Positions 21,699 to 23,822 of a stretch of DNA of 64,000 nt are shown here, one piece after another. Origin of the DNA: an uncultured Candidatus Saccharibacteria bacterium (GTDB lineage Bacteria; Patescibacteriota; Saccharimonadia; Saccharimonadales; Saccharimonadaceae). Numbering within the stretch: the first letter of the stretch is position 1; the number at the start of each line of letters is the position of its first letter. The stretch spans positions 2,908 through 66,907 of the forward strand of contig CAMNPZ010000002.1 in assembly GCA_946548715.1 (NCBI GenBank), given 5' to 3'. The notes beneath the pieces are model-generated. The model saw nothing but the letters and a program-made list of their open reading frames with translations. It ran no database searches and was not told where the DNA came from. A program made the position numbers and the translations under genes.

Positions 21699-23822
21699 AT
21701 GAATAAAGTAGATGCGGAGCAAAGAATCGCGAAATTGCGCGAATTAATTAACGATTATCGGTATCATTATCATGTGCTGGATGAGTCGACGATGAGTGAG
21801 GCGGCGGCGGATTCGTTGAAGCATGAGTTATCAAGGTTGGAGGAGGAATATCCAGAATTAATCACGCCGGATTCACCAACGCAACGAGTAGCGGGGAAGC
21901 CGTTGGATAAATTCACAAAGGTACGGCATGAAAAACGGATGATTTCTTTGGCTGATGTGTTCTCAGAAGAGGAGGTGAAAGATTGGATTACACGAAATGA
22001 GAAGTTGATTCCAGGTGGGCATATTGAAGAGTTCTTCACTGATATTAAGATGGACGGACTAGCATGTTCGCTAAAATACCGTGATGGTGTATTTGTACAG
22101 GCGGTGACGCGAGGGGATGGACTCGTGGGCGAAGACGTAACTCTTAATGTCAAAACGATTGAAAATATACCATTGCGCATTTCGATTTCCGAAGAAAACG
22201 AATCTCAGTTGAATCTCGGGGCGCGTCCGGCCGGCCCGTCGCCACGGGCGGCCGGCGCTACCCCTCGGCTTGCCAGCCTCCGGACCCCCTCGATTTCAAC
22301 TGAGACTTCGTTTCCTTCAGAAGTCGAGGTGCGGGGTGAAATTGTGATTTTCAAGAAGGATTTTGACCGTTTGAATGAAATTCAGCGGAAGCAGGGTGAG
22401 GCGGAGTTTGCAAATCCGCGGAATTTGGCGGCGGGATCGATTCGACAACTTGACCCGAAGGTGGCGGCGAGTCGTCCGTTGAAGTTTATTGCTTACGATT
22501 TGGTGACACCGGATAGGCCGACTTGGCATGAGGCATATGAGACTTTGAGAGAATTGGGATTCCAGACTTCAAATGAAGATAGGGTGTTTCGAGCAGATGA
22601 AATGAAGGAATTATTCCGGTATATTGGTGAACTCGACGAATACCGTAAGGGTTTGCGTTTCAATACAGACGGGATGGTGATTAAGATTAATGATAGAGCG
22701 GTGTATGATAAATTGGGGATTGTTGGGAAAACCCCGCGCGGTGCGGTGGCGTATAAGTTCCCGGCGGAGGAGTCGACGACGGTGGTGCGCGATATTGTGA
22801 TTTCGATCGGGCGGACTGGTGCGGCGACGCCGGTGGCGATACTGGATCCGGTGCAAGTGGCTGGCACAACAGTGCGTCATGCTTCGCTACATAATGCAGA
22901 CGAGATTGCGCGGCTTGATGTGAGAATTGGCGATACGGTGATTATTTACAAGGCGGGTGATATCATTCCGCAGGTAAAAGAGGTGCTTTTGACGCTGCGT
23001 CCGGAAGGAACGGAGGCGTTTGATTACGAAAAGGCGTTGAAGCGACAGTACCCGGAGTTGCAGTTTGAGCGACCGGCGGGTGAAGTAGTATATAGAGTGA
23101 AAGGCGAGTCGTCGAATCTGATATTGAAACGAGCGATTGAATATTACGCATCGAAGCCGGCATTAAATATAGAAGGGTTGGGAGAGAAAAATGTAGAGGC
23201 TTTGATAGACGCGGGGTTGATTGGTTCGATTGCGGATTTGTATCGGTTGAAAGAATCGGAAGTAGCAAAACTGGAAAGATTTGGTGAGCTTTCGGCGCGG
23301 AATTTGGTGACAGCGATTGAAAAGGCGCGAACTCCGGCACTAGGAAAGTTCATTACGGCGCTGGGGATTCGGCACGTGGGGGCAGCGACGGCGACAAGTT
23401 TGGCACGGAGGTTTAAGAGTTTGGATAGACTAATGGAAGTGACGGAAGAAGAGTTGATGGCGGTGGATGACATCGGCGAAGTGGTGGCGGAGTCGATTGT
23501 AGCGTGGTTTGCAGATGAAGACAATGCGAAAATGTTGGAAGAGTTGCGGGAAATGGGGGTGTGGCCGCAAGAAGAGAATACCGATGAATTGCCACTTGTT
23601 GGCCAATCGTATATTGTGACTGGAACGCTGGCTGCGATGGGACGCGAGGAGGCAGAGGATAGACTGCGAGCGTTGGGCGCGACGGTGACTTCGTCGGTGA
23701 CGAAGAACACGACGGCGTTGATTGTGGGAGAGAAACCAGGGAAATCTAAAATGGATAAGGCGGCTAAATTAGGCACGCCGGTAATGAACGAAGCGGAATT
23801 TCTCAAATTAGTAAAAATGTGA
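21699..23822 (+). CDS. ligA: NAD-dependent DNA ligase carrying an in-frame palindromic insertion
   Basis: KMDGLA adenylation motif, [20 protein letters not shown]-terminal BRCT. Confidence 0.97.
22181..22328 (+). mobile_element. In-frame palindromic element, copy in ligA (sense)
   Basis: Core 22214-22293 with cccgtcgccacggg at 22235-22248; arms gaagaaaacgaatctcagttgaa / ttcaactgagacttcgtttccttc. Confidence 0.85.

Follow-up and report, generated by a model that had tools for sequence, protein, structure and literature searches.

We analyzed a 64,000-nt stretch of DNA (the window) from an uncultured Candidatus Saccharibacteria bacterium, covering positions 2908-66907 of contig C2 (CAMNPZ010000002.1) in a 26-contig assembly of 781,578 bp with 45.6% GC (GCA_946548715.1). 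Within it, the gene ligA for NAD-dependent DNA ligase carries a long hairpin insert that is read in frame. This insert is probably an old, locus-resident hairpin resembling the Rickettsia palindromic elements (RPEs), whose outer left arm was extended by template switching after the insertion. An earlier note on this DNA had suggested another reading, namely that the left arm may have been copied from the target by a fold-back or template switch at the time of insertion; on this model the right arm is original ligA sequence, and an 8-bp direct repeat, TCGATTTC, marks the junction through microhomology or duplication. Hereafter, "own" denotes the copy in the studied genome, and L- and P-numbers denote DNA sequences and proteins of its relatives, respectively.

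The proteins closest to the 707-aa product of the host gene are named LigA, come from Candidatus Saccharibacteria and carry the Pfam ligase domains, and the 707-aa protein aligns with the adenylation domains of LigA structures in PDB. When aligned with 1B04, the solved adenylation domain of the Bacillus stearothermophilus ligase, 43 own residues (63-105, encoded by 22185-22313) fall between residues 159 and 161 of the chain, and own PSEVEVRGE is placed opposite PVSLEARGE. As judged from this alignment, the insert apparently sits in the turn just before ligase motif III. The region 22170-22340 is predicted to form a single long hairpin (free energy -99.2 kcal/mol, z = -8.2, equaled by none of 200 shuffled sequences; -85.0 when G-U pairs are disallowed), and an inverted-repeat call gave 27-nt arms with 81% complementarity. 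GC content at the core reaches 0.71 in a 100-nt window. The foldback reaches the conserved EVEV codons, as had been noticed before: CGCATTTCGATTTC (22176-22189) pairs with GAAGTCGAGGTGCG (22320-22333) at 11 Watson-Crick and three G-T positions out of 14, and the latter segment reads GAA GTC GAG GTG CG, the codons for E-V-E-V-R. The parts of the hairpin are listed in Table 1.

Table 1. Coordinates of the ligA gene and of the parts of its hairpin insert (positions in the window)
Feature	Position	Strand	Description
ligA, NAD-dependent DNA ligase	21699..23822	+	Host gene; 707 aa; open reading frame and translation
Whole foldback	22171..22338		Single-strand prediction; includes inverted repeats I1 and I2; with G-U pairing disallowed, the stem spans about 22176-22333
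Net insertion	22185..22313	+	129 nt = 43 codons; no counterpart in canonical LigA or in 664-aa empty alleles (P0004 class)
Left outer arm	22176..22199	+	CGCATTTCGATTTCCGAAGAAAAC; mirrors the right host flank; holds the left TCGATTTC; lineage-specific
Left inner arm	22200..22215	+	GAATCTCAGTTGAATC; locus-specific; orthologous in own-type alleles, with conserved or compensatory changes only
Conserved core	22216..22293	+	GC-rich; closing stem TCGGGG/CCTCGA; hairpins H1 and H2
H1 hairpin	22223-22258	+	Apex CCCGTCGCCACGGG; covaries
H2 hairpin	22262-22283	+	Loop TGCC; covaries
Right inner arm	22294..22309	+	TTTCAACTGAGACTTC; joins core end TCGA to make the right TCGATTTC (22290-22297)
Right outer arm	22310..22333	+	GTTTCCTTCAGAAGTCGAGGTGCG; host codons (F)PSEVEVR, immediately ahead of ligase motif III

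The gene is present in all 24 same-genus species genomes that were sampled, with a short loop at this place in 18 of them (e.g., IPLKIHLEDGVPSEIEVRGE). The 120 closest LigA proteins (76-94% identity) comprise 42 with the short loop and 78 with inserts of several peptide types, which represent different core subfamilies, orientations and reading frames. If the right arm were original ligA sequence, an empty allele consisting of that arm plus one TCGATTTC would be expected. No such allele was found among the 120 proteins, and the right-arm peptide STETSFPS appears in none of their 42 short-loop members. The closest empty allele, L032 (P0004), is 98.3% identical in amino acids and 94% in nucleotides to own outside the loop, and its loop IPLRIDVKEAEVRGE, encoded by ATT GAT GTG AAG GAG GCG GAG GTG, contains neither arm. 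Empty alleles with neither arm had been named in the earlier note as the outcome that would refute its model, which as stated therefore fails. The motif xPSE(V/I)EVRGE is kept in L007 and L008, both empty alleles, as well as in many proteins with a short loop, and the ordinary empty alleles L007-L023 do not fold (free energy without G-U pairs, -0.5 to -16). A different kind of allele is L031 (P0006), which outside the loop shares 98% of amino acids and 92.9% of nucleotides with own. Its loop, CGC ATT TCG ATT TCT GAA GAA GTC GAG GCG, retains just the outer stem, TCGATTTC-TGAA-GAAGTCGA, and lacks both the core and the inner arms. Compared with ligA genes that lack the insert, both inner arms and most of the left outer arm are thus extra sequence. 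Two further forms were observed among the relatives: P0011 (720 aa) seems to contain a pair of inserts, side by side or nested, at the ligA site, and P0030 and P0052 hold long and short forms of the core at the same place within the same arms.

The left outer arm mirrors host codons. Positions 22176-22199 agree with the reverse complement of 22310-22333 (CGCACCTCGACTTCTGAAGGAAAC) in 19 of 24 bases and differ from it by transitions at the other five, and the codons on the template side, F-P-S-E-V-E-V-R, are conserved in empty alleles. Mirrored outer arms face each other in every filled allele for which DNA is available, as with CCACTTCAGAAGGACAGCC opposite GGCTGTCCCTTCTGAAGTGG in L006 and GCTTCGAGAACTCC opposite GGAGTTCTCCGAAG in L035. 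The same correspondence can be seen in the 78 filled LigA proteins, whose alleles are not independent: a left SISE is accompanied by a right PSE[IV]E in 10 of 11 cases and never by FSEVE, and a left L-x-[FL]-E-[NK]-S by a right FSEVE in 10 of 15. Both associations are those expected from reverse complementarity, given that TCG ATT TC and GAA ATC GA are exact complements.

The timing of the mirrored arm can be read from orthologous copies. The same insert with the same inner arms is found at the same place in L034/P0002, L106/P0018, L107/P0022 and L108/P0024, four lineages with LigA proteins 81-92% identical to own (92% outside the loop for L034). Across these own-type alleles the inner arms differ by compensatory pairs only (C to T together with G to A; three to four such pairs in L108), and 17 pairs have changed on both sides, a number that none of 500 shuffles reached and that compares with 1-4 in slid controls. 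The own-specific left stretch is absent or different in all four lineages (6-12 gap columns in the alignment), and the outer-stem pairs (columns 13-26 with 157-170 of the own-type alignment) form in own only; outside this group, the mirrored outer arm of own is common to the core-less allele L031. Because the mirrored stretch is missing from four orthologous copies of the same insert, it would have been added after the insertion rather than during it, and the left outer arm, including the left TCGATTTC, would be a secondary, lineage-specific addition. The proposal that the left arm is an inverted copy of the target therefore stands for the outer 24 nt or so and falls for the inner arms, which are extra on both sides. 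The segment 22176-22199 also has the form by which quasipalindrome template switching is recognized, that is, a lineage-specific reverse complement of the opposite arm that raises complementarity. Horizontal transfer or homing of the insert together with its inner arms was considered as well, the insert unit being about 96% identical between own and L034 as against 57% at 4-fold sites. It was set aside on the graded compensatory changes in L106, L107 and L108, a series expected for an old orthologous stem under pairing constraint.

The 8-bp repeat itself is as originally described. TCGATTTC occurs at 22182-22189 and 22290-22297, 108 nt apart from start to start, or 36 codons in the ligA frame, and deleting one copy with the interval removes these 36 codons and yields the peptide given in the earlier note. 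At this locus such an 8-mer is nominally unusual (P ~0.02 with the two arms shuffled). Over 43 hairpin loci, the longest arm-to-arm direct repeat has a median of 6 nt against a null of about 5, and reaches at least 8 nt in only four loci, two of which involve self-complementary words. Furthermore, the orthologous insert of L034 has the right copy only, and L031 the left copy only. The right copy is made of the conserved core end TCGA and the first four inner-arm bases TTTC and is found in all five own-type alleles, and the left copy mirrors host GAA(G/A)TCGA, from which it follows that the two probably arose independently. By these comparisons the repeat reads as a coincidence and not as an insertion scar. 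A target-site duplication at ligA was likewise rejected, as the family has no consistent arm-to-arm direct repeat. Only one locus, at C10:27377-27559 outside the window, has a long arm-to-arm direct repeat that is not palindromic (CTGTTCGGTTTT, 12 nt).

A blastn search with six copies from the window as queries located 54 core loci in the genome, 51 of them inside open frames of at least 80 aa. At each locus a conserved core is enclosed in a long stem of locus-unique sequence. The ligA core is related to about 54 loci and is 98.8% identical to the copy at C5:27912; cores are 98-99% identical despite unrelated arms both in this pair and in that of pcrA and C1:20281. No significant similarity between the arms of different loci was detected, each arm having at most two genomic matches (itself and its partner arm), and the possibility that arms were copied from elsewhere in the genome or are common to several loci was discarded for want of such matches. 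The H1 apex motif CCCGTCGYYACGGG has 39 occurrences in the own genome, occurs 0-17 times in 13 of 19 other same-genus genomes, and is all but lacking in the others among 301 genomes of the class. On this distribution the repeat family seems to be essentially restricted to one Saccharibacteria genus. With CCCGTCGYYACGGG taken as the plus strand, 30 of 41 oriented intragenic cores run opposite to the host gene and 11 in the same direction, a bias that may reflect which frames lack stops or are tolerated as peptide. A known structured RNA family was also sought and rejected, as Rfam gave no match: among its covariance models only tRNAs reach the gathering score in the window, and the long-form copies gave chance-level matches only (E >2).

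The arms are locus-resident and co-evolve by compensatory change, and the conserved cores are exchanged between loci. In L108, the orthologous ligA arms carry the H1 hairpin of another subfamily. At the first of two methyltransferase sites (58870-59060), the arms are orthologous to those of L109 (1590-1720) with compensatory differences, and the core is of another type; at the second (59650-59835, compared with L109 2290-2420), both arms and core differ and the L109 core has the opposite orientation. More generally, relatives with closely similar sequence elsewhere vary in the core, its orientation and the arms found at the ligA, tyrS and pcrA sites. Where a site has independent occupants, as observed for ligA, tyrS and the methyltransferase, their inner arms are unrelated even between identical target flanks, and the inner arms can therefore not have been templated by the target. 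Target-templated synthesis had been offered to explain why arms differ from locus to locus; what we observe instead is arms that stay at their locus and cores that are swapped. The pcrA site (25950-26120, minus strand) has three different contents in own, L031 (5441-7597) and L034 (5274-7481), and the content of L031 differs although its neighboring ligA is 98% identical to own in amino acids. In L034, a gene with a CdiA_C toxin domain (PF18451; 7606-8064) adjoins pcrA.

Changes in flanking codons could also be followed in tyrS (57776-57892), where the whole hairpin is additional, as it is at several other loci; that both arms are extra at tyrS had been suspected earlier. Compared with the closest empty allele, QIERVVNADNVVMVDNYDW (P0124, L109), own has GAA CGA G in place of GAG AGA G on the left and CTC GTT in place of ATG GTT on the right. 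Two synonymous changes (GAG to GAA and AGA to CGA) together with ATG to CTC create the complementary pair AACGAG/CTCGTT, so that the right side follows the conserved left. At the same site, many TyrRS alleles of 421 aa (P0146, P0153, P0163 and P0194-P0236) have 10 extra residues of the form AGDG..(D/N)G..T(P/Q/K)xL, which may be eroded remnants of an element; no strong fold was found in alleles of this kind (L039-L041 and L046).

Replication template switching is the most likely cause of the mirrored left arm, judging from its sequence pattern. In such mutations the polymerase copies the nascent strand or the opposite arm and makes a quasipalindrome more perfect (PMC7202029), and short-range template switching yields short inverted copies (PMC7954356). 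Switching within the imperfect palindrome during replication would keep and extend arm complementarity at the DNA level, and at ligA it may have inserted about 9 nt, besides causing substitutions, on the left side, which is under less constraint. Cores might be homogenized or swapped between loci by gene conversion, or by a template switch through the short conserved closing stem. L031 would have arisen by deletion, with the mirrored outer stem left behind as a scar. Several points weigh against this reading. Template switching is deduced from a sequence pattern, and selection for a stable hairpin could leave identical compensatory changes. With LigA alleles that are non-independent and a loop that is hypervariable, ancestral states are inferred and not proven, among them the direction of change between L031 and own. 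The loop alignments that bound the host-position flanks are fuzzy by a few residues, and the flank comparison described below is small, with 11 sites and one exception at which the other genome is also occupied. Moreover, a closing stem of only 6-10 nt would be an unusual route for gene conversion, and no mobilizing enzyme was found in a search that covered the Y1 transposase family only, Y1_Tnp (PF01797) being absent from the genome while positive controls matched.

Arm complementarity, including the extension at ligA, might instead be maintained by selection on the folded transcript, for example for mRNA stability, translation pausing or as an RNase target. This reading has in its favor the strong covariation in both the arms and the core hairpins, the very stable structure and the conserved core loops. 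In 40 intragenic hairpins oriented by host sense, the sense strand has 43 wobble-type mismatches and the antisense strand 38 (p = 0.66), so that G-U is not in excess over A-C. This symmetry, together with cores that face either way relative to their genes, speaks against selection on the mRNA fold and favors a strand-symmetric process acting on DNA. In addition, a mirrored insertion of 9 nt is more simply obtained by templating than by point mutation and selection, and a perfect stem of 40 bp in an essential reading frame would seem to bring no obvious benefit to translation. We therefore consider selection on RNA unlikely as the source of the ligA extension.

A second alternative is that the target was already a small palindrome like L031, and that the element enters the apexes of hairpins whose outer arms are older than the insert. 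L031 has exactly the outer stem without a core at 98% amino acid identity outside the loop, and different cores have come to lie at the same insert sites. In G011 (a complete same-genus genome of 815 kb with 39.6% GC and 20 core loci, compared with 45.6% and 54 in own), about a third of the own sites are filled too, usually by another core type or orientation, with arms retained at some. We compared 11 own loci at which the flanks aligned cleanly and G011 has a gap of 25 aa or more, taking 36 nt of host-position sequence on each side. The net insertion at these loci is 30-43 aa (90-129 nt) whatever the length of the hairpin (40-74 aa); the length of long hairpins comes from pairing that continues into host positions. 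The flanks of the occupied sites pair with each other more strongly (-14.2 kcal/mol on average) than do 952 adjacent control windows from the same genes (-9.4 kcal/mol; Mann-Whitney p = 0.0008). The orthologous sites in G011, of which 10 of 11 are empty, do not differ from controls (-7.9 vs. -7.5, p = 0.36), which implies that the targets were not pre-existing palindromes, and this candidate was rejected for these sites. Flank complementarity thus accompanies the element, which supports, for the genome as a whole, the extension of pairing into host codons seen at ligA. At ligA, ordinary empty alleles do not fold, as described above. Moreover, an outer stem of the SISE type was seen only in insert-holding alleles and in L031, and the four orthologous own-type inserts lack it. 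An older palindrome at the target is accordingly quite improbable.

The proposal of the earlier note, that the whole left arm was templated by the target at insertion, draws on the mirrored host codons, on an extra 108-129 nt that is numerically near the core plus one arm, and on the locally improbable 8-mer, and it is very unlikely in view of the nearest empty alleles with neither arm, the absence of the left TCGATTTC from the orthologous inserts, the unrelated inner arms at shared sites, the wholly extra hairpins at tyrS and elsewhere, and the lack of a consistent direct repeat in the family.

The closest known likeness is to RPEs, which are about 150 bp long, present in dozens of copies, and found in frame within housekeeping genes (PMC10969869). 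The elements described here share with them a palindromic form, a length of about 100-150 bp and a number of copies that runs to dozens within a reduced genome, and they too lie in frame in unrelated housekeeping genes and add a peptide, apparently without breaking the protein; the insert in ligA measures 129 nt, and those at 11 loci 90-129 nt. RPE families, however, conserve sequence and peptide along the element, whereas here only the central 60-80 nt, with two covarying GC-rich hairpins, are conserved. Unlike RPEs, the ligA-type family has long locus-unique arms, cores that are swapped in place, and a palindrome that extends into host codons. The hosts differ as well, Rickettsia in one case and a genus of Saccharibacteria, within the Candidate Phyla Radiation (CPR), in the other, and the link to RPEs is one of analogy rather than of sequence membership. 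As in the miniature transposable elements with inverted repeats called MITEs, repetitive extragenic palindromes (REPs) and the REP doublets known as REPINs, the repeats are small, have hairpin potential, occur in many copies per genome, and encode nothing themselves. In MITEs the terminal inverted repeats are conserved and the target site is duplicated; the ligA-type family shows neither trait. REPINs lie outside genes and need a RAYT (Y1) transposase, but the family studied here is intragenic in a genome with no Y1 gene. Quasipalindrome template switching, as studied in Escherichia coli reporters (PMC7202029; PMC7954356), produces clustered substitutions and small inverted-copy insertions, the same pattern as that at 22176-22199. 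It is known at reporter and scattered genomic sites, but has not been described as extending a mobile repeat into the codons of an essential gene. Our literature search found no paper that joins Saccharibacteria with palindromic in-frame insertions. It is possible, though tentative, that these repeats represent a previously undescribed kind of intragenic selfish DNA, in which the structured GC-rich core moves or converts between pre-existing hairpins without a transposase and template switching keeps the locus-resident arms complementary and lengthens them, progressively rewriting adjacent codons of essential genes (ligA, tyrS, topA and pcrA) where the protein tolerates it.

Taken together, the analysis closes target-templated arm synthesis with an 8-bp junction repeat as a proposal and puts a testable alternative in its place. 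About 50 hairpin inserts persist inside essential genes of a 0.78-Mb, nearly all-coding genome, and their arms behave as self-correcting palindromes whose complementarity spreads into neighboring codons. Since the ligA, tyrS and pcrA loops differ in strains that are 98% identical elsewhere, such hypervariable loops matter for alignment-based phylogeny. If the process is general, it would be a natural, genome-wide case of quasipalindrome template switching shaping protein-coding sequence, and it would also explain the hypervariable loops in conserved proteins of CPR bacteria.

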